Assembly: GCA_028712885.1 (NCBI GenBank)
Contig: JAQTPK010000006.1
Span: 14,273-78,272 of the forward strand
DNA from: Syntrophales bacterium
Lineage (GTDB): Bacteria > Desulfobacterota > Syntrophia > Syntrophales > UBA4778
Length of the DNA stretch: 64,000 nt
Direction: 5' to 3'
The notes beneath the pieces were generated by a model. It was not told where the DNA came from. It saw only the letters and a program-made list of their open reading frames with translations, and did not search any database. Below, in pieces: positions 25,096 to 41,128 of this stretch. The first letter of the stretch is position 1, and each line of letters opens with the position of its first letter. A program made the position numbers and the translations under genes.

Positions 25096-25908
25096 TTAAA
25101 CTCCCCGCAGCCTCCTTGCGTAATCCGGCCTCAAAATTCTGATCAGAAGGAGAGTGATCGGGTTCATGCGATAATAGGCCGGCTCGCTCGACCGCCTGCA
25201 TCCCCGGCGCAATTTGAAATCATCCAGGCTGCCTTTACTGCCGGCGATTCCCATAAAGACCAGCTGCGCTCCCCTGCACTCGGCCGCGAATTCCCTGATG
25301 AGATGAAGCGAGTATTCAGGGGCATTGAACCTGAGCCCGGTCGAATTGCTGAATGAAGAAGAGTAATAGATGACATCCTCAACTGAATAGGCGACGTTAA
25401 TGCAGCACAGGATGCCTTCATGGTAAAGACCGAAGACGAGGACTTTGGGGCTTTGCACAAGTACTCCCGCCCATGCCGCAAAGGACTCCTTTTTCTCCCG
25501 CTCGCGCTTCCACCTGTATTGCGTTCTGGCGAAGAACTCCAGGTAGACCGGATGTCCCGCATCGATGAATTCCGCAGGGTCGCTGATCCTCCTTATCTCC
25601 AGGTGTTTTGCCGATTTCCTTATCGCTCTCCTGTACTTGGATGCGATGCTGGATATCGAGTATTCCCCGGTGTTGTCGGTTACGATGAAATTCATTTTCG
25701 AGTTCGCACCCTTTTCTCCGGTTACAAGATGCTGATACCCCGCCAGCACGGATCCGGCAGGGGGGCCGGCCTTCTCCGGCTCCGCTCTGAGAAACAGATG
25801 TACAGGCCGGTAAAAGAAGGGGCGAACCTGCCGCCACCAGATTCCGCCGGAATGCCTGACCCGTGCCCCTGCCTGCTCCTCCAGGGCGGCATGCTCTGCA
25901 ATCGTCAT
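25096..25908 (-). CDS. Hypothetical protein, distant FemAB/GNAT-like acyltransferase fold
   Basis: Start set at ATG 25908 (ATGA overlap with the DegT stop). 'KYRRAIRKSAKHLEI', 'VFGLYHEGILCCINVAY' and 'SLDDFKLRRGC' loosely parallel the neighbouring FemAB-like protein. Confidence 0.35.
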   Translation of the reverse strand: MTIAEHAALEEQAGARVRHSGGIWWRQVRPFFYRPVHLFLRAEPEKAGPPAGSVLAGYQHLVTGEKGANSKMNFIVTDNTGEYSISSIASKYRRAIRKSAKHLEIRRISDPAEFIDAGHPVYLEFFARTQYRWKREREKKESFAAWAGVLVQSPKVLVFGLYHEGILCCINVAYSVEDVIYYSSSFSNSTGLRFNAPEYSLHLIREFAAECRGAQLVFMGIAGSKGSLDDFKLRRGCRRSSEPAYYRMNPITLLLIRILRPDYARRLRGV

Positions 25909-27074
25909 GGCGGGTATGTTCTTGAGCAATTGCCGCTCCCTTCAGTCCCGCTCTCCCGGCCGGACTGCGCCATAGTATGGAACTTGCGAATCTCTTCCGA
26001 CGTGAAGCGGATCTGTTCCGGTTTCAGCTCCGGGTACATCGGCAGCGAAAGCGCTTCCCGCGCGATTTTCTCAGCAACGGGGTAACTGCCCGGACCGAAT
26101 CCGAGGTGCCGGTATGCACTCTGAAGATGAATGGGGACGGGATAGTGGATCCCGCACTGGATCCCCCGGCCGGACAGATATTCCAGAAGTCGGTCGCGGT
26201 TCCCTGACCGGATGCCGAAGATATGAAAAACGTGCTTTCCATATCCGGCTTCTTCCGGCAATGCTACTCCTTCCATCCCTTCGAGGCACTTTCTGTAAAA
26301 CCCCGCTGCCCCTCTGCGCGACTCGTTCCACGCTGCAAGGTGGCCAAGCTTGACGCTGAGAACGGCTCCCTGAATGCCGTCCATGCGGTCGTTCCATCCG
26401 ATGAAGTCGTGGTGATATTTCCGGGGCTGGCCGTGATCCCGCATCATTCGTATTCGCGAGGCCAGTTCCGGATCATCCGTGACGACCGCTCCGGCGTCGC
26501 CAAATGCGCCCAGGTTCTTGCCTGGATAAAAGCTGAAGCATCCGGCGTCCCCGATGGAGCCGGCCTGTCTTCCACGGTATTGAGCGCCGTGCGACTGGCA
26601 CGCGTCCTCCACGACGCGCAAATTCCGGGAGGCGGCGATTTCCATTATCGGGTCCATGTCCGCACACTGACCGTAGAGATGCACCGGGACGACTGCTCTT
26701 GTCCGCGGCGTCAAGGCGCGCTCGATAAGAGCGGCATTCATAGTGAACGTCGTCTCCTCGACGTCGACGAAGACCGGCTGCGCGCCGCACCGGCTGATCG
26801 CCTCCGCGGTGGCGATGAATGTGTTCGGGACGGTTATGACCTCGTCGCCCGGGCCGATGCCCATGGAACACAGCGCCAGCCACAGCGCCGATGTTCCGCT
26901 GCTCACGGCAACGGCATGCCGGCGGCCGCAAAAAAGGGCGAATTCCTCCTCGAAACGCGCCACGTAGGGGCCGCTGATGAAAGCGCATTCCTCGAGAACG
27001 GCGTGGACCGCGGCGTCGATCTCCTCTTTTATGGATCTGTATTGCGCATTCAAGTCCAGGAACGGCACGATCAT
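25905..27074 (-). CDS. DegT/DnrJ/EryC1-family PLP-dependent sugar aminotransferase (WbpE/GnnB-like)
   Basis: 'MIVPFLDLNAQYRSIKEEIDAAV..FISGPYVARFEEEFA..AVAVSSGTSALWLAL..FYPGKNLGAFGDAGAV'. Confidence 0.9.
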   Translation of the reverse strand: MIVPFLDLNAQYRSIKEEIDAAVHAVLEECAFISGPYVARFEEEFALFCGRRHAVAVSSGTSALWLALCSMGIGPGDEVITVPNTFIATAEAISRCGAQPVFVDVEETTFTMNAALIERALTPRTRAVVPVHLYGQCADMDPIMEIAASRNLRVVEDACQSHGAQYRGRQAGSIGDAGCFSFYPGKNLGAFGDAGAVVTDDPELASRIRMMRDHGQPRKYHHDFIGWNDRMDGIQGAVLSVKLGHLAAWNESRRGAAGFYRKCLEGMEGVALPEEAGYGKHVFHIFGIRSGNRDRLLEYLSGRGIQCGIHYPVPIHLQSAYRHLGFGPGSYPVAEKIAREALSLPMYPELKPEQIRFTSEEIRKFHTMAQSGRESGTEGSGNCSRTYPP

Positions 27075-27931
27075 GACCCGTGTAAAGTCTCCTTTTCGAG
27101 CTCTTTTACATCCATGGCGGTTTCCTCCTTTCCCGTGCGGATGCCGGCGATTACGGAAACGCCCGCGTGCACGCGCTGTCCGACCCTGACGCGGATTTCC
27201 GGCGCGAGCCCTCCCGGGATTACAATGTCAACCTGCGAACCGAAGCGGATTATCCCGACCTCCTGTCCGGCGCACAGGAAATCTCCGGGCGTGACATAAG
27301 ATTCAATCCGCCGCACCAGCCGCGAGGCGATATGGATAAGTCCGACCTTTCTTTCGCCGTCCTCGATAATTCCTATCAGGCGCTCGTTCCGCCAGGCGGC
27401 TTCCCTTTTCTTCAGAGAAAGGAATACTCCCGGAATACGCTGAAGATGAACGACCCTTCCGCTGATCGGCGCCCTCGTGACATGCTCGTCAAGAAGGCTC
27501 ATGCCGATGCCGACAAGGTATCCGCCCCTGTCGCCGGCCATGCCCGAAAGAGGGGGAGATAACGGCACGCTCTCCGCGCCTTTGGAGGAAAAAGGGGCTG
27601 TTTCCGGACTGATCGGCTTCAGATATTTGATTGTGCCGTCCGCCGGGGAAACGATCAGATCCCGTCCCGGAGGGGGCCGCCGCTCGGTCCGTCTGTAAAA
27701 ACGCATCAGCAGAGCCGCCGCGGAAACCGCCAGGATCAGAGCCGCATCCAGCAATAGAAAGACCGCCCTGCCGAGGGGATGAACGGCGTCAACAGCATGG
27801 AGCAGTCCGCCGATCACGATTCCCGCAGCGACGGCCCATGCCAGCACCAGCCGCAGATCGAGTTCCCATTTCCAGGCGAGCGGACCCAGCATCGACAACG
27901 AGATAATGCAGCTAATCGCCAAATCCGTCAT
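27071..27931 (-). CDS. Membrane-anchored phosphatidylserine-decarboxylase-family (pyruvoyl) protein
   Basis: Two to three N-terminal TM helices, then 'VSPADG', 'DEHVTRAPISGRV' and the self-cleavage-type 'RFGSQVD'. Start at ATG 27931 (MTDLAISCII). Confidence 0.7.
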   Translation of the reverse strand: MTDLAISCIISLSMLGPLAWKWELDLRLVLAWAVAAGIVIGGLLHAVDAVHPLGRAVFLLLDAALILAVSAAALLMRFYRRTERRPPPGRDLIVSPADGTIKYLKPISPETAPFSSKGAESVPLSPPLSGMAGDRGGYLVGIGMSLLDEHVTRAPISGRVVHLQRIPGVFLSLKKREAAWRNERLIGIIEDGERKVGLIHIASRLVRRIESYVTPGDFLCAGQEVGIIRFGSQVDIVIPGGLAPEIRVRVGQRVHAGVSVIAGIRTGKEETAMDVKELEKETLHGS

Positions 27932-29120
27932 TGCGGGCCCTCGTTTTCTTGTAGAGAAAATACGGAGCGAACAGGAGCTCAATGAGGAAGGGGACCGGGT
28001 CGCCCGGGCGGTAGACCGCCAGTTCCTTTTTCCCCCTCATGGTTTTCAGGTATTCCAGAGGATGCAGGCGACCTTTCCACATCTCGCTCGCCACGATGAG
28101 GGAATCCGTCAATTCCCTGATCCATTTGACGCCGTTTTCGGAGCAGTGCGGCGCCACGGACGCCCCGTTCATGTCGAGGTAGAGCAGGTAAGAAAAATTG
28201 ACGCCCGCCCGCGAACCCAGGGTATGCCATCCCCAGGTGCGGGGATTTATCTCCAGAAGCTTGAATTTTTCTTCCTTCTGATCCCGCATGAACTCGACTT
28301 CACACAGACCGTAATACCCGACCCTCTTCAATACTCGCGTCGCCGGTTCCTCCAGTTCCGGAACTTCGCATGTGTAGGCATATGTAGTGGCGGTGCCGAA
28401 TTCCATGGGATGCTGCCTCGGCCGTTTGGCGACGAGCTTGGCTTTGACCCTTCCCTCGCTGAAAAGGCAGCAGAAGGAAAACAGGTTGTCCGGACACCCC
28501 CTGATGAACTCCTGGATCATGATCTCCGAAGGATCTATGATGGCGGACATCTGCCGGTAACGGCGGATAAGCTCCTGTTTGTTGTCCGCACGAACGGCCT
28601 TGCGCAGCGTATACGGAAAGAAATGGTCCTTGATGGAAGGCTTCAGGACGACGGGGTATTCAAGCTCGAACGCGGCAAGCTCCCGTTCATCTCTGGGGAA
28701 AAGAGTCCGCGGAACGGGTACTCCCGTCAACTCGGCTATTTCGTACGTCAGCCTCTTGTCATACAAGTACTTCGTGATCTCCCATTCCGGTGTTGGAATC
28801 CGGTAATGCTCTCCAAGCTCCTTTCGGCCGCGGGATATTACATGGACCGCCATGTCCAGCGTGGGGAAAAGCACCCAGTCGCGGAGTTTCTCGACTTCAG
28901 CGAGTTGAATCAGAAAGCGATGAAATTCGCCGTTTCCGTTTATGGCGGGACAGCGAAAATATTTCCTGACGAATTTTGAATATCGCGCGATGCAGAAATC
29001 CGGATCTACGATATAAACGGGGATCCCCAGGGACGCAAGGTTTCTTGCTATGCCGAGCCCCTGATAATCTCCGCCGATAATCACAGCTCCGCTGCTCGAG
29101 AACGAAGATGCCGGTTGCAT
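27912..29120 (-). CDS. ATP-grasp superfamily ligase (COG3919-like carboxylate-amine ligase)
   Basis: 'GAVIIGGDYQGLGIARNLASLGIPVYIV' is the pre-ATP-grasp Rossmann segment. 'YPVVLKPS..', 'IMIQEFI.G' and 'GLCEVEFMRD..FKLLEINPR' are ATP-grasp core motifs. Confidence 0.75.
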   Translation of the reverse strand: MQPASSFSSSGAVIIGGDYQGLGIARNLASLGIPVYIVDPDFCIARYSKFVRKYFRCPAINGNGEFHRFLIQLAEVEKLRDWVLFPTLDMAVHVISRGRKELGEHYRIPTPEWEITKYLYDKRLTYEIAELTGVPVPRTLFPRDERELAAFELEYPVVLKPSIKDHFFPYTLRKAVRADNKQELIRRYRQMSAIIDPSEIMIQEFIRGCPDNLFSFCCLFSEGRVKAKLVAKRPRQHPMEFGTATTYAYTCEVPELEEPATRVLKRVGYYGLCEVEFMRDQKEEKFKLLEINPRTWGWHTLGSRAGVNFSYLLYLDMNGASVAPHCSENGVKWIRELTDSLIVASEMWKGRLHPLEYLKTMRGKKELAVYRPGDPVPFLIELLFAPYFLYKKTRARNDGFGD

Positions 29121-30556
29121 GGTCGGGCCTTGATCAGGATTTTGTAGCGGATCTTTTCAAACAGGTTCCGGAAGAACAGATTATTGAAGAACAGTCTTTC
29201 AAACAGACCGACAACAAACAAATTCCTCATGAGGAAACGAATAAGGACGTTTCGTCCGAGCTGTCGTGACACGGACTTTTTTATAGTGTCTTTTTCTATC
29301 TGCTGGCACTTTTTCAGTATCTTCACCCGTTCCGCCGCGGCGATTTCGGGAGTTTCAAAGACCGGAACGGAGCGGTTTTCAGCAACGCTGTTGAGGTAAA
29401 CATCCGGCGGGATAAGGAATAGTTTATGCTCTTCTATGTAATCGTACATCTCCGTTCCCGGATACGGGATGGGATTATTCAGATTCAGCTTCGTCACGGG
29501 GTATTTCTGCGCCAGTCTCAGGCTGTCCTCCACGTCTTCCAGCGTCTCCCGGGGGGTGCCGATCATGAAAAATAGCCGTACATCCATTCCGATTTCACAG
29601 GCGTTGCGGACGGCGTTTTCAATTGTCTCCAGGGTTTCCCCCTTTTTCAGCAGCTTGAGGACACGGTCGTTCCCTCCATCCACCCCGAAGCCGATTTCCT
29701 TCACTCCTGCATCGTACATTCTCTGCAGCAGCTCTCTGTCCACGCGGTCCGCCCTTACGCCGTTGGAACAGCGGAGGAATAGGTCCTTCATCTCCCTGCG
29801 TTCTATTTCATCGCAGAATTCGACCACGCGCGCCCGCTGGAAAGTAAAGTTATCGTCGTCAATCGCGAATTGCCGGATCCCGCGGGAATACCAGTATTCG
29901 ATCTCGTCGACGAAGTTGCCGATGCTGCGTACGCGGTAAATCCTGGCGATCATTCTGTTGGGGCAGAACGTGCAGGCATACATGCACCCCCTGCTGGAGT
30001 GGATCGGGATCTGGCTGGAGTAGTTCGTCAGCTTGAATTTATGGTAACGCGGAAACGCCAGCTCATCGAGATTCATCAGCACAGGCCTGTCGCCGCTGAA
30101 AACGACGTTTCCGTTTTCACGGTAGAGCAGTCCCTGGACGGACCTGACCGGAATATCGCCGCGGCACAGATCAATCACGGTTCTTTCCCCGTCCGCCACG
30201 ACGCCGACGTCGATCTCCGGACATTCTTCGAGGACCCTGTCCTTTAACACCGTGACGTGGTGGCCCCCGGCCACGATGGCTGCGGATGGAAGCAGCTTCC
30301 TTACTCCGGAAATTATCCGGTATGCCTCTTTGTACCCGAGCGAGCTCAAGCTGAAGCCGATCATGTCGGGACGAAAGTCCAGGATCCTCTTCCTCAGGTA
30401 ACGAAACGAATACCCGATCCTCATGTCAACGTACTCGTAATCGACTCCTCCGTCGAAGAGCGCCTGGGCGATGTAGCCGACTCCTGCCGGAATTCTCAAT
30501 CCGCCATAGCGGCTCACAACCGGGGGACTGACGAGAAGAACTCTGTTAAATCGCAT
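29081..30556 (-). CDS. B12-binding-domain radical SAM enzyme (class B)
   Basis: N-terminal cobalamin-binding-like domain ('VLLVSPP..GVGYIAQAL..PDMIGFSL..AIVAGGHHVT'). The CxxxCxxC cluster is 'SSRGCMYACTFCPN'. Confidence 0.8.
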   Translation of the reverse strand: MRFNRVLLVSPPVVSRYGGLRIPAGVGYIAQALFDGGVDYEYVDMRIGYSFRYLRKRILDFRPDMIGFSLSSLGYKEAYRIISGVRKLLPSAAIVAGGHHVTVLKDRVLEECPEIDVGVVADGERTVIDLCRGDIPVRSVQGLLYRENGNVVFSGDRPVLMNLDELAFPRYHKFKLTNYSSQIPIHSSRGCMYACTFCPNRMIARIYRVRSIGNFVDEIEYWYSRGIRQFAIDDDNFTFQRARVVEFCDEIERREMKDLFLRCSNGVRADRVDRELLQRMYDAGVKEIGFGVDGGNDRVLKLLKKGETLETIENAVRNACEIGMDVRLFFMIGTPRETLEDVEDSLRLAQKYPVTKLNLNNPIPYPGTEMYDYIEEHKLFLIPPDVYLNSVAENRSVPVFETPEIAAAERVKILKKCQQIEKDTIKKSVSRQLGRNVLIRFLMRNLFVVGLFERLFFNNLFFRNLFEKIRYKILIKARPCNRHLRSRAAEL

Positions 30557-31025
30557 CTGAAGCTCCTTGTGACGCGGCCGGGGAAACGTCGATTCGCCGC
30601 ACCTGCCGCGCGGGGATTCCCGCCACGACTGTGAAGTCCGGCACGCTCATGGTTACCAGGGAGGCGGCCCCCACAACGGCGCCTCTGCCGATCCGGACGC
30701 CGGGCAGCACGATGCAGCCCGCGCCCAGCCATGCGTCCTCGCCTATTTCGATCGGCGCTCTTACCTCTCCCATCTGCAGTCTGTAGTGCGAAAAATTGGC
30801 TCGTGAAGAAGTGACGAGCATGACCCTGTCGGCAATGGCGACTCTGTCCCCGATCTTTACCATCCCGCGGTCCGCCGGCTCGTCTTTAATAATGAGATCT
30901 TCACCGATGAAAACACGGCTGCCTATCCGGTAGCCTGCCATGGCCAGCAGACCGGCCCGAATACGGTATCCGGGCGCGTGTTTGGCGGCCGTTTTGATGA
31001 TTTTCTTGAAGATTTCATAAAGCAT
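30546..31025 (-). CDS. Left-handed beta-helix (hexapeptide) acetyltransferase, WcaF/LacA-like
   Basis: Start at ATG 31025 (MLYEIFKK..). Hexapeptide turns 'IGSRVFIGEDLII', 'IGDRVAIADRVML', 'IGEDAWLGAGCIVLPGVRIGRGAVVGAASLV'. The 84 upstream track codons are Arg-rich overprint and are rejected. Confidence 0.75.
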   Translation of the reverse strand: MLYEIFKKIIKTAAKHAPGYRIRAGLLAMAGYRIGSRVFIGEDLIIKDEPADRGMVKIGDRVAIADRVMLVTSSRANFSHYRLQMGEVRAPIEIGEDAWLGAGCIVLPGVRIGRGAVVGAASLVTMSVPDFTVVAGIPARQVRRIDVSPAASQGASDAI

Positions 31026-31066
31026 CAGCAGCTGACCCGCACGTCCGTGAGGCGGGCATTTCGCCG

Positions 31067-31594
31067 TCACAAATCCGTCGCCGGCATTTCCTGCATGGAG
31101 GCGGCCGGACGAATCCCCCCCACCGCCGGCCGTAGAAGTCTCGCCGGGTTCCCGGCGAAGATCGACCATTGCGGCACATCTCCGGTGACAACGCTGCCCG
31201 CGCCCACAATGGCGCCTTCCCCGACTGTCACGCCGGCGAGAATGACCGCGCCGGAACCGATGGAAGCCTTCCTGCATATCCGCGTCGGATGAACGACCCA
31301 GTCTTCTTCCGTCTGCAGTATTCCGTCCTGCGTTGTTGCGGACGGATAAATATCGTTGATAAACGTAACGTTATGCCCGACAAAGACCTCGTCCTCTATG
31401 CTGACTCCCTCGCAGATGAATGTATGGCTGGATATCTTGCAGAAGCTGCCTACGGACGCGTTTTTCTGTATTTCGACGAATGCCCCGATTTTGGTGTTGT
31501 CTCCCACGGTACACCCGTAAAGATTGACGTAAGGGGCGATCTTTACGTTTCGGCCGAGCCTGACATCCTCCGCAATGCACCTCTGGTCGCTCAT
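31067..31594 (-). CDS. LbH N-acetyltransferase for an amino sugar (WbpD/QdtC/WxcM-C-like)
   Basis: 'VRLGRNVKIAPYVNLYGCTVGDNTKIGAFVEIQKNASVG..ICEGVSIEDEVFVGHNVTFIND..IGSGAVILAGVTVGEGAIVGAGSVV'. 4-nt overlap with the upstream oxidoreductase gene. Confidence 0.75.
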   Translation of the reverse strand: MSDQRCIAEDVRLGRNVKIAPYVNLYGCTVGDNTKIGAFVEIQKNASVGSFCKISSHTFICEGVSIEDEVFVGHNVTFINDIYPSATTQDGILQTEEDWVVHPTRICRKASIGSGAVILAGVTVGEGAIVGAGSVVTGDVPQWSIFAGNPARLLRPAVGGIRPAASMQEMPATDL

Positions 31595-32601
31595 AAGTAG
31601 ACCATCTCCCCGCGGTTTTTCAGGGATCGGTTTGCGGCCTCAAGCAATTTCACGACTCTCAACCCCGCCTGTCCGTCGTTGATCGGCACTCTGTCCTCCT
31701 TGATGCAATGAACGAAATATTCAGCCTCGATCTTCAGGGCTTCAATGTGGTCTATCTTCGGGACCCACATGTCACCGGACCGGTAACTCACAAGCAGGTC
31801 GTAGATGTTTTTCGTGCAGTTCGTAACTTCCACTCCCTTGTCGTAGATGATGACCTTCTGGTCGGCATCCAGATCGTTCCAGACCAGCATTTTCTTGTCC
31901 CCCCCTATCAGCGTGGTCCTCACCTTGACCGGAGAGAGCCAGTTTACGTTTATGTGCGCGATCAATTTTTCGGGGAAGTAGATCGTAATGTAAGCAACGT
32001 CTTCCAGATCATGATTGAAATGCGCCTGGCCCGTTGCAATCAGCGCGTCCGGATTCTTCATAAGCAGGTAATCCATGATGGAAAGGTCGTGGGGCGCAAG
32101 GTCCCAGACGACATTCACGTCGTGCTGGAACTGGCCGAGATTGACCCTGGTTGAATCAAAATAATAAAGTTCACCCAGAGTCCCGTTCTGGGTGATTATC
32201 TCTTTTATTTTCCTGACTGCGCCGGTGAACAGGAACGTATGGTCCACCATGATCTTCAATTGCCTTTTTTCCGCCGATTCGATGAGCTCCTCCGCCTGGC
32301 TCACCGTGCAGGTGAAGGGTTTTTCCACAAAGACGTGCTTGCCGTTTTCCAGAGCCGACTTCGCTATTTCGAAATGCGTGGCAACGGGCGTAATGACTGC
32401 GACCGCGTCAATATCCGGCGACCGCACTATATCCCGATAATCGGAACAGGTCCGGATGAAGGGATAAGCCCTCTGCGCGCGTTTCCTTGCGTCGGAATTG
32501 AGATCGCTTACGGCTGTCACCCTTGCGCCGTCCGTATCATTGATGTTCCTGACGACTTTCGGGCCCCAATATCCGTATCCGACCACGCCGATCCGGACCA
32601 T
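31591..32601 (-). CDS. Gfo/Idh/MocA-family NDP-sugar oxidoreductase (WbpB/GnnA-like)
   Basis: Start at ATG 32601 (MVRIGVVGYGYWGPKVV..). 'HVFVEKPF' and 'MVDHTFLF' are typical of the family. Confidence 0.8.
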   Translation of the reverse strand: MVRIGVVGYGYWGPKVVRNINDTDGARVTAVSDLNSDARKRAQRAYPFIRTCSDYRDIVRSPDIDAVAVITPVATHFEIAKSALENGKHVFVEKPFTCTVSQAEELIESAEKRQLKIMVDHTFLFTGAVRKIKEIITQNGTLGELYYFDSTRVNLGQFQHDVNVVWDLAPHDLSIMDYLLMKNPDALIATGQAHFNHDLEDVAYITIYFPEKLIAHINVNWLSPVKVRTTLIGGDKKMLVWNDLDADQKVIIYDKGVEVTNCTKNIYDLLVSYRSGDMWVPKIDHIEALKIEAEYFVHCIKEDRVPINDGQAGLRVVKLLEAANRSLKNRGEMVYL

Positions 32602-32940
32602 AACCGCCTCGTTCCTTTTCAGCACTGCAGATTTTTGAAATAAAACAGGTAAAAATGAATTCAGGGTGACATGTTTTGCGACAGGACGGAAGAGCTGCGC
32701 TTCCGTCAGATTGAACATTATCTGTTTATTACTTAAGGCGGAACATAGCTATCCCTTCCCTCCTGATTTTGAATATCGAAATTCCTTAATTCAGCCCGCA
32801 AGAACCCCTAAGTAGAACCTAAGTTTCCGGTTCACAGTTGGCAGCTCAAGCATCGTGAGGTTTAATGCGCAAGGCGTGATGCGTAAGGGGTTTTCGCTGA
32901 ACACCTGACGATTACACCGTACGCCTTGCGGGAACTGTGA

Positions 32941-34074
32941 CTAGTACGCTCCTTTTCCCGAAAGAACGGCTCCCGGCGTCGCCAGCACGATCCTGATATC
33001 CATCCAGAGGGACCAGTCTCTCGCGTAGCGGATATCCAGCCGGACCATGCTGTTAAAATCCGTGCGGCTTCTTCCCTTTACCTGCCACAGCCCTGTTATG
33101 CCCGGCTTCATTTCCAGGATTCTCTCCCGGTGCCACAAGTCATAATCAGCGCATTCGTAAGGTATCGGCGGCCTCGGCCCCACAAGCGACATATCTCCCG
33201 TGAGGACATTAATGAGCTGCGGGAGCTCATCCAGGCTGGTCCTGCGGAGAAGCCTCCCTACCGGGGTGACCCGGCTGTCTTCCGTCAGCTTGTATATGCG
33301 GGGCGCTGCGTCATCCTGAGATTCCAGAGTGCCGCGAATAAATTTGCGGATATAGGACCGGTGTGCTTCCGCATTTGAGCCTGCATACATCGATCGGAAT
33401 TTCAGAAATACGAAACGGCGCCCGAAGCGGCCGATTCTCTCCTGGCGGAAGAGCACCGGTCCCTTCGAGTCCGCCTTGATGGCTGCAGCAATGACCAGGA
33501 AAAGGGGAAAGGTCAGGGCCAATCCGGCAGCGCTGCCGATGATATCCAGCATGCGCTTGACAGCCAGGGGTATCGTCCTTGCGCGGTTTCTGATCAGCCC
33601 CGGATACAGTGCAGGGTCAATCTGTATTCCGTCCTTTTTTTTTTCTTCCGGATACACATGGAAAGTTATATCGAGGAGTCCTGAGTCTTCCGGGCCCAGG
33701 GTCATGCTGAAACGGCTTGATAACTTGCGCAGAATGCCGTTGCGCGCCGCTTCGCCGGTCTGTTCCATTTCCGTGAAAATCACCCCGATGGAAGAGCCGC
33801 TCCGGTACCAGCCTTTCAGATCGATTTCCCTGGTGCAGGTGAGCAGATCGTGCGCGACCGGGCGCAAAACATCCCTGCCGCGGGCTTTCAGAATGCGATC
33901 GAGGTTCAGGATCATCAGCAGAAAAGGCTTTCCGGAGCGTTCCGTCCTCCTTCTCTCCAGATAAAGCCTCTCCTGGAAGAAATCCTGCACATACAGGCCC
34001 GTATCGTAATCTATCAGGAAATGTGCGGAGAAATGCCCGGGCAAAGACTTCTTCGAGTCCGCTCTGATTCTCAT
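32941..34074 (-). CDS. Polyprenyl-phosphate sugar-phosphate transferase (bacterial sugar transferase) with N-terminal degenerate GGDEF-like domain
   Basis: C-terminal '[55 protein letters not shown]' is the PGT domain. It is preceded by one hydrophobic helix (aa ~175-200). N-terminal '[38 protein letters not shown]' is GGDEF-like. Confidence 0.85.
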
Positions 34075-34100: not shown

Positions 34101-34826
34101 TTAAATCCTCCGGTAAATGAATTCCGGAATATGATACTTCCTCTTGTTGAGGACCATTCCCAGCACTTTGCCCTGGGAGCGCAGTATCTTCTCCTTCGTG
34201 TTTTCCGCAACGGGCCAGCGGGTCCGGTCGGCTTCCACCACCAGCACCGTGCCGTCCATAAAGCGGGAGAGCATTACACTCCCAGGCGACCCGCCTGCGG
34301 GCGGTGAATCGACCAGCACATAATCGAACCGCTGCTTAAGTTCCATCCACAGTTTCTCATACAGCAGAAGATCAAGATTCCTGGCGGCTGCAGCCGGGTT
34401 CTTTGAAATCACCGCCAGGGACAGATTCTTTTCCGGGGTGGCGTAGATCGCGCTTTCGACGGGGACACCGTCGCGAAAACTCTCCTCCAGGCCATTCTCG
34501 GCGCCGATTTTGAAATAGCGATGCTGGCCGGGATTTTTCCTGTCCTCGTCCACAAGAAGTACGGATCTGGACATTCTGCCGGCCACGGTCACGGCAAAAA
34601 GACGGGCGAGAGTGGAGGTCCCCTCCCCCGCGCGGGATCCTATAAACTGCACCGTTTTGCCCGCCGTACCCGGCAGGATGGATTCCAGCGTCTGATAAAG
34701 GCAGTCCATCTCACCTTCGACGCCGGGCATCTCCCTTTTAGGCGCGACGCTCTCAGGCTGCTGATCCATGCTTTTCTGCTTTTGAGCCTGCTCCAGGGCT
34801 TCGTAAATCTTGCTCATAATTTTCAC
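34101..34826 (-). CDS. BY-kinase/MinD-like P-loop protein of the PCP module; Walker A Lys replaced by Thr
   Basis: 'VQFIGSRAGEGTSTLARLFA' (Walker A with T70), 'VLLVDEDRKNP' (A'), 'DYVLVDSPP' (B). No C-terminal Tyr cluster. 4-nt overlap with the upstream ATPase gene. Confidence 0.65.
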   Translation of the reverse strand: MKIMSKIYEALEQAQKQKSMDQQPESVAPKREMPGVEGEMDCLYQTLESILPGTAGKTVQFIGSRAGEGTSTLARLFAVTVAGRMSRSVLLVDEDRKNPGQHRYFKIGAENGLEESFRDGVPVESAIYATPEKNLSLAVISKNPAAAARNLDLLLYEKLWMELKQRFDYVLVDSPPAGGSPGSVMLSRFMDGTVLVVEADRTRWPVAENTKEKILRSQGKVLGMVLNKRKYHIPEFIYRRI

Positions 34827-36124
34827 CTCGGTCTGGTCGGTTTGCTGCCTTTGCTGCCGGAATCAAGTTCAGGAAATATTATCTCGTCTCCGACATAGAT
34901 CCTATGTATGTTCTTTATGGACGGGTTCTCTTTCTTGACGTTTTCCATGAGCCTGAAGTCGGTAAAGCCGTAGATTTTCCGGGTCAATGTCGACAGGTTG
35001 TCGCCTTTCTTCACGAGCCGGTTGACGGGATATTTCCCCGGTTTGACGTGCGTGGCCGCAGTCCCTGCGCCGGGGGCGGCGGCTCCCGAGGAGACGGAAG
35101 CGACGGGGGAGACGGCGGCGCCGGGGGGCGCGGTCGACTCTTCTTTTTCCTCTGCGCTTACCGGAGCCTGATGATGAGTTGCTTCAACCTGCGCCGTCTT
35201 GTTTTCTTCTCCGCGATTTCCGATTAAATGCAGATCGCCGGCGGCGAACCATAAGATCGGCACGGCGGCGGCAAGAGCCCCCGCGGCATAGCCCCATCTG
35301 AATGATGCTTCTCTCTTTTTTCCTTTCAGGTCGGAAATGACCTCGCTTGCTGTTTTCGCCGAGACGGTCTTCTTCTGCCGCCCGAATGCCGTAATGAGAG
35401 CGTTATCGCAGATGATGTTGATTTTCCTTGGAACTCCCTCCGCCTCTTTGATTATTTTTCGAACAGCCCATCCGGAAAATATTGCTGCCGATTCCGCGCC
35501 GGCCTTTTGCAGCCGGTGCCGGATATACGCGGCGCTTTCCGCCGTCGTCAGGGGAAGGATGACGGAGCGGATTGCAATCCTTTGATTGATCTGCCTCAGC
35601 GCGTGCTTGGAGAGCATTTCCTCGAACTCAGGCTGCCCGATCAGGACAATCTGGATAAGCTTTTCCTTGGCCGTTTCCAGATTGGACAGAAGCCTTAAAT
35701 TCTCCAGGGTAAGAACGGGTATGTTCTGCGCTTCATCTATGACCAGGACGATGTTGCGGTTTTTCTCGTACTGCCCGATCAGGACCTGGTGCAGCCTGCC
35801 CACCATCTCGAATACATCGTTTGTCTTCACGTCTGCATCGAGCTCCTGCAGAACGGTGTGGAGGAGGCTCCGGAAAGACAGGTTGGGGTTGAAGATATAG
35901 ACGGCGTGCGTGCTCCGGCGGTCAACCGTTTCCAGGTAAGAGCGCAGGACGGTGGTCTTCCCGACTCCTACGGCGCCCGTGACGGCCACAAAGCCTTTTT
36001 TTTTCTCTATCCCGTAAATAATGGAAGCGAGCGCCTCCTTGTGGCTGGGACTGAGAAAAAGAAATTCCGGATCGGGGGTGATATGGAAGGGCTCTTTTTT
36101 AAGCTGAAAGTATTCCAGGTACAT
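34823..36124 (-). CDS. ExeA/GspA-like AAA ATPase with TM segment and C-terminal LysM domain (secretion ATPase type of PEP-CTERM EPS loci)
   Basis: 'YLEYFQLKKEPFHITPDPEFLFLSPSHKEAL..GFVAVTGAVGVGKTTVLRSYL' and 'VLVIDEAQN'. TM helix 'GYAAGALAAAVPILWFAA'. LysM-like 'VKKGDNLSTLTRKIYG..IHRIYVGDEIIFP'. Confidence 0.75.
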   Translation of the reverse strand: MYLEYFQLKKEPFHITPDPEFLFLSPSHKEALASIIYGIEKKKGFVAVTGAVGVGKTTVLRSYLETVDRRSTHAVYIFNPNLSFRSLLHTVLQELDADVKTNDVFEMVGRLHQVLIGQYEKNRNIVLVIDEAQNIPVLTLENLRLLSNLETAKEKLIQIVLIGQPEFEEMLSKHALRQINQRIAIRSVILPLTTAESAAYIRHRLQKAGAESAAIFSGWAVRKIIKEAEGVPRKINIICDNALITAFGRQKKTVSAKTASEVISDLKGKKREASFRWGYAAGALAAAVPILWFAAGDLHLIGNRGEENKTAQVEATHHQAPVSAEEKEESTAPPGAAVSPVASVSSGAAAPGAGTAATHVKPGKYPVNRLVKKGDNLSTLTRKIYGFTDFRLMENVKKENPSIKNIHRIYVGDEIIFPELDSGSKGSKPTRPR

Positions 36125-38588: not shown

Positions 38589-40361
38589 TCACCGGCAGGA
38601 GTAAAGCGACAGGAGCCTTTTGAGCACCGTCGAATAATACCGGGCCTGATCCCGGAACTTCCTGCCGTCGCCGGAATCTCCCAGTAAATCGGCGCAGAGG
38701 CATGCGTACCCCAGGCGGAAGGAAAGATAGGCCATTGTATAAAAGGGCAGTTTCGCGGTTATCGACTTGTCTCCCGAGATCTTTGTGTAGCGGCTGATCA
38801 GAAAATCCCTCTGCCGCCGGTCCAGGCCGAATTCGATGCACGCCCCTGCGATATCCCACGCGATGTCCTGGGAGCGGGGGAAAAACTGATCGAGGTGGTG
38901 ATCGAGCCCGTCCGTTTTCATGAAACCGGTCGCCGTGCGCAGCCATTCGTGGGGAAGCATTCTTCCGTCGACGGCAACGGCCTGTCCCGCCTCGAATGTC
39001 CTGTACAAACCTTCGATGCTTTCGAATTTCGAAAGCCACTCAGCTCCCATCGCTTCCTCAATATTGGTTCTCATCATCTCCATCATTTCTTCGGCGGAGG
39101 AGCTTTCCGCCGCCGGGAAATCCGATTTCAGACGGGCGAGATAGGCCGCCATGGTCCCCAACAGGTCCGTGGTGATGATGTCCCTCCGGGAGACCGGACG
39201 TCCGGAAACGAACGGCATGATCAGAAACCCGCTTTTCAGCCCGAGCGCGGGAGGAGCGAATCCCGAAGACGCAAGCGAATCCAGGCGCGCGAGCTTGGAC
39301 CTGCCGTATTTCCCGAGCCCGGCAAATTTCATCAAATACAAGCCGTCCGCCCGCTCTCCCCTCCCGGACCGGAAAAATCTTTTTTCCGAGCAGACGTACT
39401 TTCTCTGTTCATGCTGGGGATGAACGGCGGGATAGTCTTCGGCATTGCTGAAGAATACCCCTCGCCAGTTGCCTGCGGATACGTCTTTGGCGATCGGCGC
39501 CGGGAGGCACGCGTCCAGTCTGCCGGTCCTGATCCAGACGTCTTCGAACGACGCGGCGTATTTCCCGTGCCTGCTCCAGCGCGCCCGGGCCTGCTTATTC
39601 AGAAAATCCGCCCCGTCTGTGTCCCAGCACGGGAAGTAGACGATGCGGTCGTCGGGGATACCCATCTCCGAAATTTTCTGTGCGGCCGATCCAAGTGAAG
39701 AACCGCTCAACCCCGGCCCCTCGTCAATGAGAAGATAGGCCGCCGCGGCCGGCTCCATGAGCGCACGCTGCAGCTCCGGAGACACGAACATTTCTCTCTT
39801 GAACGGATGGCCCCGCGGCCGCAGCGTATAACTGCGGCAGTTGCAGCCCAGTTCTTTCAGCGCAGCGGCGACCACGGCGGACAGGCTGGTCCCGATGCTG
39901 CGGATCCCGATGCAGACGGCCGTTTCGGGCCGCATCTCCGCATGAAAACGGCGGGCGGACTCGAGATAAGTTTCGGGGAATATACCGTAATGCGCGTATC
40001 CTTCCGCAACCCGGGCGCATACGACGGAGGGCAGGCGAAGATTCATAATCCCGCCCAGGATGTCTTTCAACTGATCCAGAACTCCGGCCGTCCCCTCCCC
40101 TCCCCGGGTCCAGGACCTGTGAAATATCTCTCCCGCGCAGAGGGTGGCGGAACGCAGCGCCTGGATTACCGGGTTCAGTGTATCCCTGGCCGGGCTCAGC
40201 GCGTCCGCGAGAGCCGCTTCGAACTCCCCGACCTCGATCAGCAGCTCCACGGCAAGGTCGTGCCCGGTCCGGCCGGCCGGGAACGTCCGGATCAGCTCCA
40301 GCAGCCGCGACCCGATCTCCTGCGGTTCCGAAAACTTTTCCTGTTTTCTGAAAATTATCAT
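38589..40361 (-). CDS. Uncharacterised 590-aa protein: PRTase-like middle region + aminoglycoside/choline-kinase-like C-terminal region
   Basis: Start at ATG 40361 (ATGA overlap). 'AVCIGIRSIGTSLSAVVAAALKELG..AAYLLIDEGPGLSGSSL' resembles a type-I PRTase core. 'LMKFAGLGKYG..GFLIMPFVSGRP' and 'KTDGLDHH..SQDIAWDIAGA' resemble protein-kinase-like-fold lobes. Confidence 0.4.
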   Translation of the reverse strand: MIIFRKQEKFSEPQEIGSRLLELIRTFPAGRTGHDLAVELLIEVGEFEAALADALSPARDTLNPVIQALRSATLCAGEIFHRSWTRGGEGTAGVLDQLKDILGGIMNLRLPSVVCARVAEGYAHYGIFPETYLESARRFHAEMRPETAVCIGIRSIGTSLSAVVAAALKELGCNCRSYTLRPRGHPFKREMFVSPELQRALMEPAAAAYLLIDEGPGLSGSSLGSAAQKISEMGIPDDRIVYFPCWDTDGADFLNKQARARWSRHGKYAASFEDVWIRTGRLDACLPAPIAKDVSAGNWRGVFFSNAEDYPAVHPQHEQRKYVCSEKRFFRSGRGERADGLYLMKFAGLGKYGRSKLARLDSLASSGFAPPALGLKSGFLIMPFVSGRPVSRRDIITTDLLGTMAAYLARLKSDFPAAESSSAEEMMEMMRTNIEEAMGAEWLSKFESIEGLYRTFEAGQAVAVDGRMLPHEWLRTATGFMKTDGLDHHLDQFFPRSQDIAWDIAGACIEFGLDRRQRDFLISRYTKISGDKSITAKLPFYTMAYLSFRLGYACLCADLLGDSGDGRKFRDQARYYSTVLKRLLSLYSCR

Positions 40362-41128
40362 GTCCTCTCCGCCAGGAGTTTCCCACCGTAAACCGAGCGC
40401 ACGAAAATCCGGCCTTTTCCAAGATCTTCGCCCATGCCGAATTCGCGGTCGGCCTTGTGCAGCGATACGCTGTGGAATCCATTCTTTTTCAGCGCTTTCA
40501 TTACCTCGTCCGGAGCATGGCACTTCTGGGATATTCTTACGTCGCTGCGATCCCACCCGGCGCCCCCCCGATGAAAAAGGGTTATATCCGTCCACGCCGT
40601 CTTCTCCCCCGGCGAGTACCCGCCGCGGACAATGCAGGCATCGTCATCTTCCACAATCGCGCATTCTTTCCCCCAGGACGTAAGGTACGCCTCCTCCGTG
40701 TTCAGATCGAACACGAAAACGGCGCCGGGAACGAGGGCAGCCCCCAGGCATTTCAGGACCAGGGTGAAACCGTCCATATCCGGAATGTGATTCAGACTCT
40801 CGAAAGCCGAAAAGGCGCCGTCGCAGCGGCGCGGCACGCTGAAGTTCCTCGCGTCCGCCTGAATGAACCGGGCTCCCGGAACCCTCCGGCGCGCGTAATT
40901 CAGCATATCTCCGGAAATGTCGACTCCGATAATGCCGAAACCCTTTTCCGCGACCGCGTATGCCAGATGCCCGGCGCCGCAGCAAAGATCGAGTACGGCG
41001 CTCCCCGGAAAGAGACCGGGGAAAAGGAGTTTTTCCAGCGCCCTCAGCGCCGGTCCGTGGAAAGCCCCGCCCCAGTATCGGTCATAAAACCGGGAGAATT
41101 TGTCGTAGGTTTCTTCTGCGCGGCTCAA
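40358..41128 (-). CDS. Class I SAM-dependent methyltransferase
   Basis: Motif I 'VLDLCCGAGHLAYAVAEKGFGIIGVDIS'. Post-I 'FIQADARNF'. TTG start. ATGA-type coupling on both sides. Confidence 0.85.
   Translation of the reverse strand: MSRAEETYDKFSRFYDRYWGGAFHGPALRALEKLLFPGLFPGSAVLDLCCGAGHLAYAVAEKGFGIIGVDISGDMLNYARRRVPGARFIQADARNFSVPRRCDGAFSAFESLNHIPDMDGFTLVLKCLGAALVPGAVFVFDLNTEEAYLTSWGKECAIVEDDDACIVRGGYSPGEKTAWTDITLFHRGGAGWDRSDVRISQKCHAPDEVMKALKKNGFHSVSLHKADREFGMGEDLGKGRIFVRSVYGGKLLAERT

Follow-up and report, generated by a model that had tools for sequence, protein, structure and literature searches.

The window analysed here comprises 64,000 nucleotides of contig JAQTPK010000006.1 from a Syntrophales bacterium. 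On its minus strand lies a gene in which a degenerate GGDEF domain is joined to a small monotopic phosphoglycosyl transferase (PGT). It is preceded in its operon by a BY-kinase-like gene and followed by genes for a dehydrogenase and an acetyltransferase. The features are the following:

32941..34074, minus strand: fusion gene of degenerate GGDEF domain and small monotopic PGT, a single 377-aa ORF with an ATG start
33649..34026, minus strand: truncated GGDEF-like (palm) domain, aa 17-142 (AF2, Foldseek, Pfam profile)
33820..33831, minus strand: primary I-site motif R82-E-I-D85 (alignment to DgcR and PleD)
33937..33948, minus strand: R43-T-E-R46 at the C-terminal end of helix alpha1, secondary I-site arginine positions (alignment, conservation)
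33787..33804, minus strand: degenerate catalytic hairpin R91-S-G-S-S-I96, where GG[DE]EF would stand (PleD and DgcR alignments)
33724..33726, minus strand: K117 in helix alpha3, conserved basic residue (99% K/R in one alignment)
33586..33648, minus strand: interdomain linker, aa 143-163 (conservation; pLDDT 75-84)
33469..33585, minus strand: amphipathic and re-entrant membrane helix of the PGT, aa 164-202 (AF2 helix, invariant columns, WbaP alignment)
32944..33468, minus strand: PGT catalytic domain, aa 203-377 (Pfam Bac_transf, WbaP, PglC, invariant columns)
33226-33231, minus strand: catalytic Asp-Glu dyad D282-E283 (invariant columns)
34101..34826, minus strand: BY-kinase-like ATPase gene, immediately upstream in the operon (NCBIfam TIGR01007, TIGR03018)
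31591..32718, minus strand: UDP-GlcNAc 3-dehydrogenase-like (Gfo/Idh/MocA) gene, immediately downstream (NCBIfam NF040723, E 1e-51)
31067..31594, minus strand: hexapeptide sugar N-acetyltransferase gene, second downstream partner (NCBIfam NeuD/PglB/VioB family)

The motifs quoted in a preliminary description of this DNA were all found in the translation (DYDTGLY at aa 22-28, a 21-letter string at aa 41-61 and a 19-letter string at aa 82-100), and its nucleotide position for the RxxD motif was correct, R82-E-I-D85 being encoded by nucleotides 33831-33820. The full-length protein was modelled by AF2 with a mean pLDDT of 89.4 and a pTM of 0.80, and with a pLDDT of 75-84 in the linker; the model is a confident single body.

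The N-terminal region had been read as a GGDEF fold from the order and spacing of its landmarks, and profile and structure comparison (Pfam, AF2 and Foldseek) both agreed with that reading. The isolated N-domain matched the Pfam GGDEF profile over aa 21-139 (E 8e-5 to 9e-5, 22.7-22.9 bits), 1 bit short of the gathering score of PF00990 (23.8 bits), and the whole protein scored 19.7 bits. At E <= 10 the N-domain matched no Pfam family besides PF00990. The same profile was matched in 21 of 150 family members (E <= 0.01; best 6.7e-8), and the family profile in turn matches GGDEF chains of the PDB. In the AF2 model of aa 1-170 (mean pLDDT 87, core >95) helices were seen at alpha(30-47), alpha(59-65, 67-80) and alpha3(108-126), and strands at beta1(51-57), beta2(86-91), beta3(95-100) and beta4(135-141). 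The GGDEF/palm core order alpha-beta1-alpha-alpha-beta2-beta3-alpha-beta4 is present in this model and in the Foldseek comparison against the PDB, where the best 50 matches were all GGDEF domains (E 6e-7 to 1e-4, probability 1.00), many of them structures that contain bound c-di-GMP. The fold is truncated. The Pfam match spans profile positions 3-128 of 161, and the AF2 model lacks alpha4 and beta5 (the helix of PleD K442/R446), only linker following beta4; the last helix of the domain, suspected earlier to be absent, is indeed missing.

Cyclase activity had been expected to be lost with the catalytic turn, and the relatives bear this out, as GG[DE]EF was found neither in 273 proteins nor in 65 N-domain ORFs of related loci. 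The former catalytic hairpin is hypervariable: 323 occurrences comprised 270 distinct hexapeptides, with GG[DE]EF in none. Besides, alignments with PleD and DgcR revealed a deletion of 6-7 residues over the FKxxNDxxGHxxGD segment, which removes the guanine-binding residues N335 and D344 (PleD numbering). The position of the metal-binding aspartate of beta1, D327 in PleD, is taken by N57 in the fusion protein and holds D or E in only about 74% of the relatives. As judged from its sequence, the N-domain is a catalytically dead GGDEF domain that has lost all active-site elements.

The RxxD motif stands in the register of an allosteric inhibitory site (I-site), and its spacing, on which the preliminary description had made its reading depend, is conserved in the homologues. 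Three independent alignments agreed on this register, since R82 and D85 were paired with R206 and D209 of DgcR by phmmer (6zxm) and with R359 and D362 of PleD by hmmsearch and by hhalign. Five residues (LKGWY) lie between D85 and the position aligned to the first G of GGEEF, which is the arrangement seen in I-site c-di-GMP receptors with a degenerate GGDEF domain, such as PelD, BcsE and PopA. Both R82 and D85 were invariant in three alignments (154, 150 and 128 sequences; about 340 homologues overall), and the family consensus of the motif is R-E-T-D. Of 62 N-domain ORFs in the 61 related loci, 60 retain the motif and the other two are fragments. Those loci were gathered with a 5-sequence alignment and two peptide patterns and are therefore biased towards motif-keeping members. 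In tandem-domain proteins RE[TS]DxxGWY was kept in each copy. Among 150 representatives (clusters at <=50% identity) the sole invariant columns were R82, D85, G88 and W89. The chance that two of four invariant columns among about 125 would be both I-site positions is about 8e-4, by post hoc arithmetic.

Conservation was also high at the end of helix alpha1, where the family motif reads ERKRxERS. R43, R46, E40 and E45 were at least 90% conserved in the same 150 representatives, R46 and E40 were invariant in 128 full-length proteins, and the conservation of R43 amounted to 98-99% and that of R46 to 99-100%. R43 stands 14 residues and R46 11 residues ahead of N57. Because of this spacing to the beta1 Asp position in an ungapped alignment, R43 can be equated with PleD R313 and R46 with DgcR R163, so both alternative secondary I-site arginine positions are occupied in one domain. 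In PleD and DgcR the primary and secondary I-sites consist of the corresponding residues, through which dimeric c-di-GMP cross-links two GGDEF domains (PMC7288161; PMC8041772). A further basic residue, K117 in helix alpha3, was K or R in 99% of the 128 full-length proteins aligned with MAFFT. The hmmalign alignment placed the conserved alpha3 lysine at R121; this was set aside for K117, because the latter requires a one-residue loop indel as compared with a three-residue insertion plus a four-residue deletion. Its relation to PleD R390 depends on the alignment, as hhalign pairs K117 with R390 but the conserved-K column of the profile with H394, one turn later. In PelD the alpha3 basic residue that is the counterpart of PleD R390 is R402. 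In DgcR the arginine equivalent to PleD R390 makes no contact with the ligand (PMC8041772). Together R41, K/R42, R43, R46, R82 and K117 make up an arginine-rich conserved patch. Several equally invariant residues find no explanation in the known I-site (G88, W89, E40, E45, S47, G97, T101/E102, H139 and P142), and these may belong to a functional surface of another kind.

The C-terminal half had been described as a complete phosphoglycosyl transferase domain, and such it proved to be. Pfam Bac_transf (PF02397) matched aa 173-371 with an E-value of 5e-64 and a score of 215.5 bits against a gathering threshold of 27 bits, covering profile positions 1-178 of 179. The PGT half was aligned end to end with WbaP (E 7e-46), and Foldseek comparison with PglC gave a TMt of 0.73-0.76 at 33-34% identity. 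The D282-E283 dyad, P300-R301-P302, K173, D177 and P190 were invariant, and R174 (97%) and S181 (92%) nearly so. The cut-offs of the large-PGT models were not reached, neither that of TIGR03025 EPS_sugtrans (279.2 vs 295.55 bits, profile positions 248-445 only) nor that of the XrtA-PEP-CTERM sugar transferase model TIGR03013 (144 vs 393 bits), and the N-terminal halves of both are absent from the fusion protein. The single hydrophobic helix that had been noted behind the GGDEF-like domain is present, but it is not a separate element: it belongs to the PGT fold as the re-entrant helix that carries K173, R174, D177 and P190 and corresponds to WbaP 270-300. A true transmembrane helix, with which the N-domain would lie in the periplasm, was ruled out by K173, D177 and P190, by the conservation of R174 and S181, and by the alignments with WbaP and PglC. 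From the re-entrant topology it follows that the N-domain should be cytoplasmic. The fusion protein is, by its sequence, a small monotopic PGT, predicted to prime repeat-unit assembly on undecaprenyl phosphate.

A search for the same fusion in other genomes, which the preliminary description had proposed, revealed a large family in Acidobacteriota, Desulfobacterota and Nitrospirota, which counts 2079 representative clusters at E <= 1e-3. It is common in phyla of soil, sediment and groundwater, and is known to the databases only as "sugar transferase", with the N-domain unannotated. Of 7516 full-length homologues (E <= 1e-40), each of the best 120 is a single protein that matches 90-100% of the query, and in the related loci about 55 of the 65 N-domain ORFs are fused to small PGTs, the exceptions being mostly truncated or frameshifted. 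The domain is modular, as it was found also on large PGTs and in tandem, and among the relatives inspected it occurred on no output other than PGTs.

The linker, in which the motif L-Y-P-[DG]-L (aa 156-160) is conserved, is encoded in part by an A10 homopolymer (T10 on the plus strand, 33635-33644). In the closest relative (loci L001-L003) the gene is frameshifted at this homopolymer, so that N-domain and PGT form two ORFs. One added A restores the conserved frame there, and the downstream ORF as it stands lacks the invariant K173/R174. An identical protein, in frame with A10, was found on an independent Logan contig. That the fusion is an artefact of the A10 tract is ruled out by this contig, by the 120 homologues in frame and by the fused ORFs of the related loci.

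In the same 61 loci a 3-dehydrogenase gene lies directly downstream of the fusion gene in 47 (typically E about 1e-150), an acetyltransferase gene is found downstream in 43, and a BY-kinase-like gene is near in 24. The conserved downstream genes for 3-dehydrogenase, acetyltransferase and DegT protein suggest that the sugar transferred by the PGT is a 2,3-diacetamido sugar. A phmmer search of the window and the 61 loci with the PleD GGDEF domain detected no canonical GGDEF gene. As c-di-GMP pools are global, this counts only weakly against c-di-GMP sensing.

On balance we favour, without great assurance, the view that the N-domain senses c-di-GMP in the cytoplasm through its I-site, with dimeric c-di-GMP as the probable cross-linker, and thereby governs the priming reaction of an exopolysaccharide (EPS) pathway of the Wzx/Wzy type. 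The domain, reduced to its I-site, would bind c-di-GMP, most likely as an intercalated dimer, and the ligand would bridge the RxxD site of one domain and the arginine site of a second one, as it does in PleD and DgcR. Such a cross-link could pair two PGT protomers or, in the tandem-domain relatives, both copies in cis. The pairing may then alter PGT activity or the contacts with partners, and the first committed step would become the switch for EPS repeat-unit synthesis. By analogy with other EPS systems, synthesis is probably turned on by high c-di-GMP, although this direction is a guess. Some observations speak against a sensor. The fold is truncated (no alpha4/beta5), while PelD and BcsE retain a full GGDEF-like module; the known I-site does not account for several invariant residues, G88 and W89 among them; PleD R390 has no unambiguous counterpart (K117 stands either there or one turn further on); and an occurrence on PGTs only, as seen in the inspected relatives, is also the pattern of a dedicated structural module.

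Such a module would be independent of any ligand. The N-domain would then be a relic GGDEF used for PGT dimerization or partner docking, with the conserved R, D, G and W residues at a protein-protein or intramolecular interface, and candidate partners would be the adjacent BY-kinase/co-polymerase machinery or the downstream WbpB/WbpD-like sugar-nucleotide enzymes. We regard this as unlikely, though it deserves serious weight. It is favoured by the restriction of the domain to PGTs in the relatives inspected, by the tight linkage to the 3-dehydrogenase and acetyltransferase genes, by the many invariant residues beyond the canonical I-site and by the truncation of the fold. The pTM of the full-length model likewise suggests that the N-domain packs on the PGT domain. 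Large monotopic PGTs are moreover active as dimers, and EpsW regulates EpsZ by promoting dimerization (PMC12802240). What a purely structural role leaves unexplained is why exactly RxxD and both secondary arginine positions, by which cyclases bind c-di-GMP, were kept when all other functional GGDEF residues drifted. In LapD and FimX, whose dead GGDEF domains make no use of the I-site, RxxD has been lost. Dimerization by the N-domain is also compatible with its being induced by a ligand, so the structural role does not exclude the sensor.

It is less likely still that the N-domain senses another ligand at its basic site, such as (p)ppGpp, another cyclic dinucleotide, GTP, a UDP-sugar substrate or product, the (pyro)phosphate head group of Und-P or anionic lipids, and so serves as a metabolic or feedback sensor. 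The arginine-rich patch would suit any polyphosphate, the Foldseek matches include 9g85 and 9g86, in which PleD is bound to ppGpp/pppGpp as well as to c-di-GMP, and sugar-nucleotide sensing would be compatible with the diacetamido-sugar genes that constantly accompany the fusion gene; the re-entrant helix would, in addition, hold the domain at the membrane surface. However, the GTP/guanine-binding active site is deleted, and we know of no precedent for a GGDEF fold that binds a UDP-sugar or a lipid. The constellation of RxxD and secondary arginines has been documented specifically for c-di-GMP (PMC7288161; PMC8041772). Finally, that the GGDEF likeness is due to chance, or the fusion to an assembly error or frameshift at the A10 tract, is effectively refuted: the Pfam score 1 bit under threshold and the split gene of the closest relative are outweighed by Foldseek matches that are unanimous for GGDEF (best 50), by the single-protein homologues, the fused ORFs and the identical gene on an independent contig, and by the mending of that split with one A.

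A c-di-GMP sensor on the PGT, should it be confirmed, might have a wider meaning, which we put forward tentatively and hold to be rather less probable than the sensor itself. The family may represent an abundant new class of c-di-GMP effectors in Acidobacteriota, Desulfobacterota and Nitrospirota, in which a GGDEF remnant that has kept only its I-site is placed on a priming PGT. By cross-linking RxxD of one domain to R43/R46 of another, intercalated dimers of c-di-GMP would bring PGT dimers together or change their orientation. This would be the first case of a second messenger directly switching the first committed Wzx/Wzy step; in some lineages sensor and enzyme might also be uncoupled in a phase-variable manner by a slippery A9/A10 tract in the linker. 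It is known that c-di-GMP acts post-translationally on synthase-dependent EPS systems (BcsA PilZ, BcsE, PelD, Alg44, PgaCD). For Wzx/Wzy-dependent pathways, a 2025 study of EpsW/EpsZ describes such control as incompletely understood (PMC12802240). If the sensor reading holds, control would be exerted where scarce undecaprenyl phosphate is committed, and the reach of c-di-GMP would extend to the most widespread route of polysaccharide assembly, in phyla of soil, sediment and groundwater, where EPS drives aggregation. As a natural minimal GGDEF of about 125 residues that has no active site, the domain could also define the smallest I-site-competent fold, and it might find use as a small module for c-di-GMP binding.

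The preliminary description knew of no characterized priming transferase with this architecture, and we likewise found no characterized PGT that has it. The literature consulted on GGDEF or c-di-GMP together with PGTs does not describe it, a supplementary listing in the survey of PGT fusions by O'Toole et al. (2021) being possible. Small monotopic PGTs can bear regulatory domains, for instance receiver domains; GGDEF is not mentioned among these (PMC12802240, citing O'Toole et al., 2021). The C-terminal 205 residues of the fusion protein resemble PglC and WbaP in fold, re-entrant helix, Asp-Glu dyad and PRP motif, whereas PglC has no N-terminal extension and the N-terminal part of WbaP consists of four transmembrane helices and a non-GGDEF domain. 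With the product-inhibited cyclases PleD and DgcR the N-domain shares the fold core, RxxD and a secondary arginine (PleD R313, DgcR R163), and it has an alpha3 basic residue whose match to PleD R390 varies with the alignment. These are active enzymes that use the I-site for feedback inhibition, however, while in the fusion protein catalysis has been lost, the output is a PGT and both secondary arginines are present at once. The EpsW-EpsZ pair of Myxococcus xanthus offers a likeness in the mode of control, as Wzx/Wzy-dependent EPS synthesis is regulated post-translationally there, directly on the priming monotopic PGT, and dimer formation is the proposed route of EpsZ activation (PMC12802240). 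EpsW, in contrast, is a separate, phosphorylated single-domain response regulator that acts in trans on a large monotopic PGT, and the fusion protein has a built-in GGDEF remnant with c-di-GMP as its presumed signal.

Close parallels are found in PelD and BcsE, dead GGDEF domains that sense c-di-GMP via RxxD (R367GLD and R415TGD, respectively) and activate EPS secretion (PMC8892547). BcsE (GIL, or REC*-GGDEF*) functions in E. coli-type cellulose secretion. Two RxxD-bearing modules coordinate a dimeric ligand there, and binding therefore drives domain rearrangement (PMC8892547). Unlike the fusion protein, BcsE is soluble and works as an accessory component in a synthase system; it carries additional ATPase-like and REC* domains, is joined to no enzyme and has no link to a PGT. 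PelD of the Pseudomonas aeruginosa Pel system, which activates exopolysaccharide production post-translationally, resembles the fusion protein in its dead GGDEF domain, its intact RxxD and its anchoring at the inner membrane (PMC8892547). It differs in that it has, besides a GAF domain, transmembrane helices of its own and a GGDEF-like domain of full length, and is a subunit separate from the glycosyltransferase PelF in a synthase-dependent pathway. The fusion protein is a further variation on the PelD/BcsE theme: its GGDEF domain is truncated, nearer to canonical PF00990 in sequence and covalently joined to an Und-P priming PGT within a Wzx/Wzy-type cluster.

The reading frame at window positions 32941-34074 (minus strand) is one ORF of 377 aa that starts with ATG. 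The residue strings quoted in the preliminary description were all found in place, R82-E-I-D85 being encoded by nt 33831-33820. In a Pfam scan Bac_transf was matched completely at aa 173-371 (E 5e-64) and GGDEF weakly at aa 21-139 (E 8e-5 to 9e-5, profile positions 3-128 of 161); at 22.7-22.9 bits the latter match falls one bit short of the gathering score of 23.8. NCBIfam yielded large-PGT models, matched over their C-terminal halves only, and faint diguanylate cyclase matches. A profile of the N-domain, built from the first homologues and searched against 1.84 billion representatives, matched 2079 representative clusters at E <= 1e-3 and 1132 at E <= 1e-10, and weakly matched GGDEF chains in the PDB (7e6g, E 0.009). 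When 150 relatives were scanned individually, 21 matched GGDEF (best 6.7e-8), and no Pfam family other than GGDEF and Bac_transf was found in these 150 save for one stray weak DUF562 match. The AF2 model of aa 1-170, made from 150 sequences, had a mean pLDDT of 87 (core >95) and the topology alpha(30-47)-beta(51-57)-alpha-alpha(59-80)-beta(86-91)-beta(95-100)-alpha(108-126)-beta(135-141). Its best 50 Foldseek matches in the PDB were all GGDEF domains, PleD, WspR, DgcR, GcbC, SiaD and DgcZ included (E 6e-7 to 1e-4, probability 1.00, identity ~20%). After beta4 only the linker follows, the alpha4/beta5 portion of a canonical GGDEF domain being missing from the model. By profile and predicted structure the N-domain is a genuine GGDEF fold in truncated form; the earlier proposal of such a domain, with its last helix suspected to be absent, thus survived comparison by Pfam, family profile, AF2 and Foldseek.

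Residue register was set by three independent alignments that agree, one by phmmer to DgcR (6zxm) and two of the family to the verified PleD sequence, by hmmsearch and by hhalign. RSGSSI occupies the position of the GG[DE]EF hairpin. In the family this former catalytic hairpin is hypervariable, with 270 different hexapeptides among 323 occurrences and GG[DE]EF in none of them, in agreement with the claimed loss of the catalytic turn. A deletion of 6-7 residues removes the FKxxNDxxGHxxGD segment, where PleD has its guanine-binding N335/D344; the helix bearing PleD K442/R446 is missing, and N57 stands at the position of the beta1 metal-binding Asp.

Dimeric c-di-GMP cross-links two GGDEF domains via a primary I-site, RxxD (plus R390 in PleD), and a secondary I-site from the second domain, R313 in PleD or R163 in DgcR; arginine is enriched at one or other secondary position among GGDEF sequences (PMC7288161, PMC8041772). 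In the alignments R82/D85 correspond to PleD R359/D362 and DgcR R206/D209, while R43 equals PleD R313 and R46 equals DgcR R163 (14 and 11 residues ahead of the beta1 Asp position, respectively). Both secondary positions are arginine in the family (R43 98-99%, R46 99-100% conserved). K117 on helix alpha3, basic in 99%, lies at the R390 position or one turn later, depending on the alignment used; the R390 equivalent in DgcR makes no ligand contact (PMC8041772). The sole invariant columns in 150 representatives drawn from clusters at <=50% identity were R82, D85, G88 and W89, which were also invariant in 128 full-length proteins taken as an independent set. RxxDxxGW was kept in 60 of the 62 N-domain ORFs of related loci, both exceptions being fragments of frameshifted genes. 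The RxxD, previously described as retained in I-site register, is therefore conserved across homologues.

The PGT domain is complete, as had been claimed, with an intact dyad and PRP motif. The WbaP catalytic domain could be aligned with residues 163-377 from one end to the other (E 7e-46), and PglC (TMt 0.73-0.76, 33-34% identity) and WbaP are structural matches to the C-terminal half of the full-length model. No variation was seen at D282-E283, at P300-R301-P302 or in the helix motif K173/D177/P190; R174 (97%) and S181 (92%) are nearly invariant. From this helix motif and the WbaP/PglC match it follows that the hydrophobic segment is the re-entrant membrane helix of monotopic PGTs, and a membrane-spanning helix was ruled out on the same grounds. 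The single hydrophobic helix noted earlier after the N-domain thus exists as a segment and belongs to the PGT fold. With the re-entrant topology established for PglC, the N-domain would stay on the cytoplasmic face, within reach of a nucleotide messenger. The full-length AF2 model (mean pLDDT 89.4, pTM 0.80, linker pLDDT 75-84) weakly suggests that both domains pack in a defined arrangement.

The fusion is a family and not a one-off curiosity. A full-protein search returned 7516 proteins at E <= 1e-40. Each of the best 120 spans 90-100% of the query at ~50% identity; their names go no further than 'sugar transferase' or 'glycosylphosphotransferase', and apart from a precomputed GGDEF match in 1 of the 120, PF02397 is the only family that they carry. 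Among GTDB species representatives the gene is present in MAGs of Bryobacterales/Terriglobia, other Acidobacteriota, Syntrophales, other Desulfobacterota, Nitrospirota and others. Nearly all N-domain profile matches long enough to run past the domain continue into a PGT, and in the related loci 55 of 65 N-domain ORFs are fused to one, the remainder being mostly contig ends or frameshifts. In a tandem variant (family proteins P0006, P0007, P0010 and P0160) two N-domains precede the PGT, each copy keeping RE[TS]DxxGWY and ERKRxERS. In another, the N-domain stands ahead of a large monoPGT (636-719 aa, four predicted transmembrane helices) in three related loci:
L049, 7896-9806: N-domain and large monoPGT
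L050, 7965-9875: N-domain and large monoPGT
L052, 7662-9821: N-domain and large monoPGT
Judged by these architectures, the N-domain acts as a module dedicated to PGTs.

The interdomain linker (EEKKKDG) contains an A10 run at 33635-33644 (T10 on the plus strand). The 64-kb window (57% GC) has only one other homopolymer of >=9 nt, an A9 (T9 on the plus strand) at 35996-36004 inside the ExeA-like ATPase gene of XrtA/PEP-CTERM type (34823-36124, minus strand), where E-K-K-K-G is again encoded, close to the N-terminus. That neighbouring EPS genes should both carry a slippery A-run does not look random. The closest relative, whose gene is 89% identical in nucleotides where aligned, has A9 at this tract (L001 10440-10448) together with 8 additional nt. 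Its gene is thereby frameshifted into an N-domain ORF of 162 aa and a PGT ORF of 203 aa, the latter lacking the invariant K173/R174. Three independent assemblies (ENA, Logan, JGI) share this exact split, and one extra A would restore the frame. The tract may be a phase-variable or transcriptional-slippage site that uncouples sensor from enzyme.

The gene belongs to a minus-strand EPS cluster that spans ~40 kb or more. Upstream of the gene are Wza-like export, chain-length determinant, ExeA-like ATPase and BY-kinase genes of XrtA/PEP-CTERM type; downstream are UDP-GlcNAc 3-dehydrogenase-like, acetyltransferase, DegT aminotransferase, B12-radical-SAM, ATP-grasp, PS-decarboxylase-like and many glycosyltransferase genes. 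No canonical GGDEF gene was found in the window or the 61 related loci. Genes relevant to the primed sugar are:
31591-32718, minus strand: WbpB-like UDP-GlcNAc 3-dehydrogenase
31067-31594, minus strand: hexapeptide N-acetyltransferase
25905-27074, minus strand: DegT aminotransferase
Across phyla, both the highly conserved dehydrogenase (E about 1e-150) and the acetyltransferase come directly after the fusion gene, some 100-300 nt downstream (L004-L061), the former in 47 and the latter in 43 of 61 loci. Together with the DegT aminotransferase of the window, this gene neighbourhood suggests that the primed sugar is a 2,3-diacetamido-2,3-dideoxy hexose or hexuronate. The mechanically called ORFs 30546-31277 and 31067-31594 (both minus strand), both hexapeptide acetyltransferases, overlap by ~210 nt. 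Because their L001 counterparts (176 and 183 aa) overlap by 4 nt only, the true start of the downstream one is probably internal, near 31096. A 668-aa ORF (38589-40595, minus strand) just upstream, in operon, of the polysaccharide export gene had no Pfam or NCBIfam match and is strongly conserved in L001/L002 (phmmer E = 0). The cluster also holds a tailoring set unusual for a polysaccharide locus, which hints at sugars that are C-methylated, decorated with amino acids or amines, or both:
29081-30556, minus strand: B12-binding radical SAM enzyme
51751-53031, minus strand: B12-binding radical SAM enzyme
27912-29120, minus strand: ATP-grasp ligase
27071-27982, minus strand: phosphatidylserine-decarboxylase-like protein

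The comparisons show that a cytoplasmic, dead and truncated GGDEF fold under strict purifying selection keeps the full I-site residue set and is joined to an intact PGT. On balance we favour the N-domain as a c-di-GMP sensor that would switch PGT priming. It would bind c-di-GMP, probably as an intercalated dimer, the ligand bridging RxxD of one domain to R43/R46 of another and so dimerising or re-orienting the PGT; where two N-domains occur in tandem, it would hold both copies together. The outcome would be a switch on the priming step, for which activation at high c-di-GMP is our guess at the likelier direction, by analogy with PelD and BcsE (PMC8892547). Against a c-di-GMP sensor stand the truncated fold and several invariant residues outside the known I-site, for which this site does not account (G88, W89, E40, E45, S47, T101/E102, H139, P142). 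With these points in mind, a ligand-independent dimerisation or docking module is possible, if doubtful, and binding of a different ligand is unlikely; both have to be set beside the complete I-site residue set. A chance resemblance to GGDEF, beside 50 best structural matches that are all GGDEF domains, or an artefactual fusion is highly improbable.

How Wzx/Wzy pathways are controlled post-translationally is described as poorly understood in a paper that names receiver-domain fusions to small PGTs, but not GGDEF (PMC12802240). The earlier statement that no priming transferase of this architecture had been characterised agrees with the literature search, in which no description of a GGDEF-PGT protein was found, O'Toole et al. 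(2021), a survey of PGT fusions, lying outside its scope. For PGT regulation EpsW-EpsZ is the nearest functional analogue (PMC12802240). As a c-di-GMP sensor, the N-domain would work as the I-site receptors PelD and BcsE do, with the residue set of PleD and DgcR. Unlike these four it scores one bit under the Pfam GGDEF threshold and is without the C-terminal third of the domain, and it falls outside the PelD and GIL families. Its output also differs from theirs, being a fused Und-P priming PGT of a Wzx/Wzy-type pathway, which is new as the output of a dead-GGDEF I-site domain.
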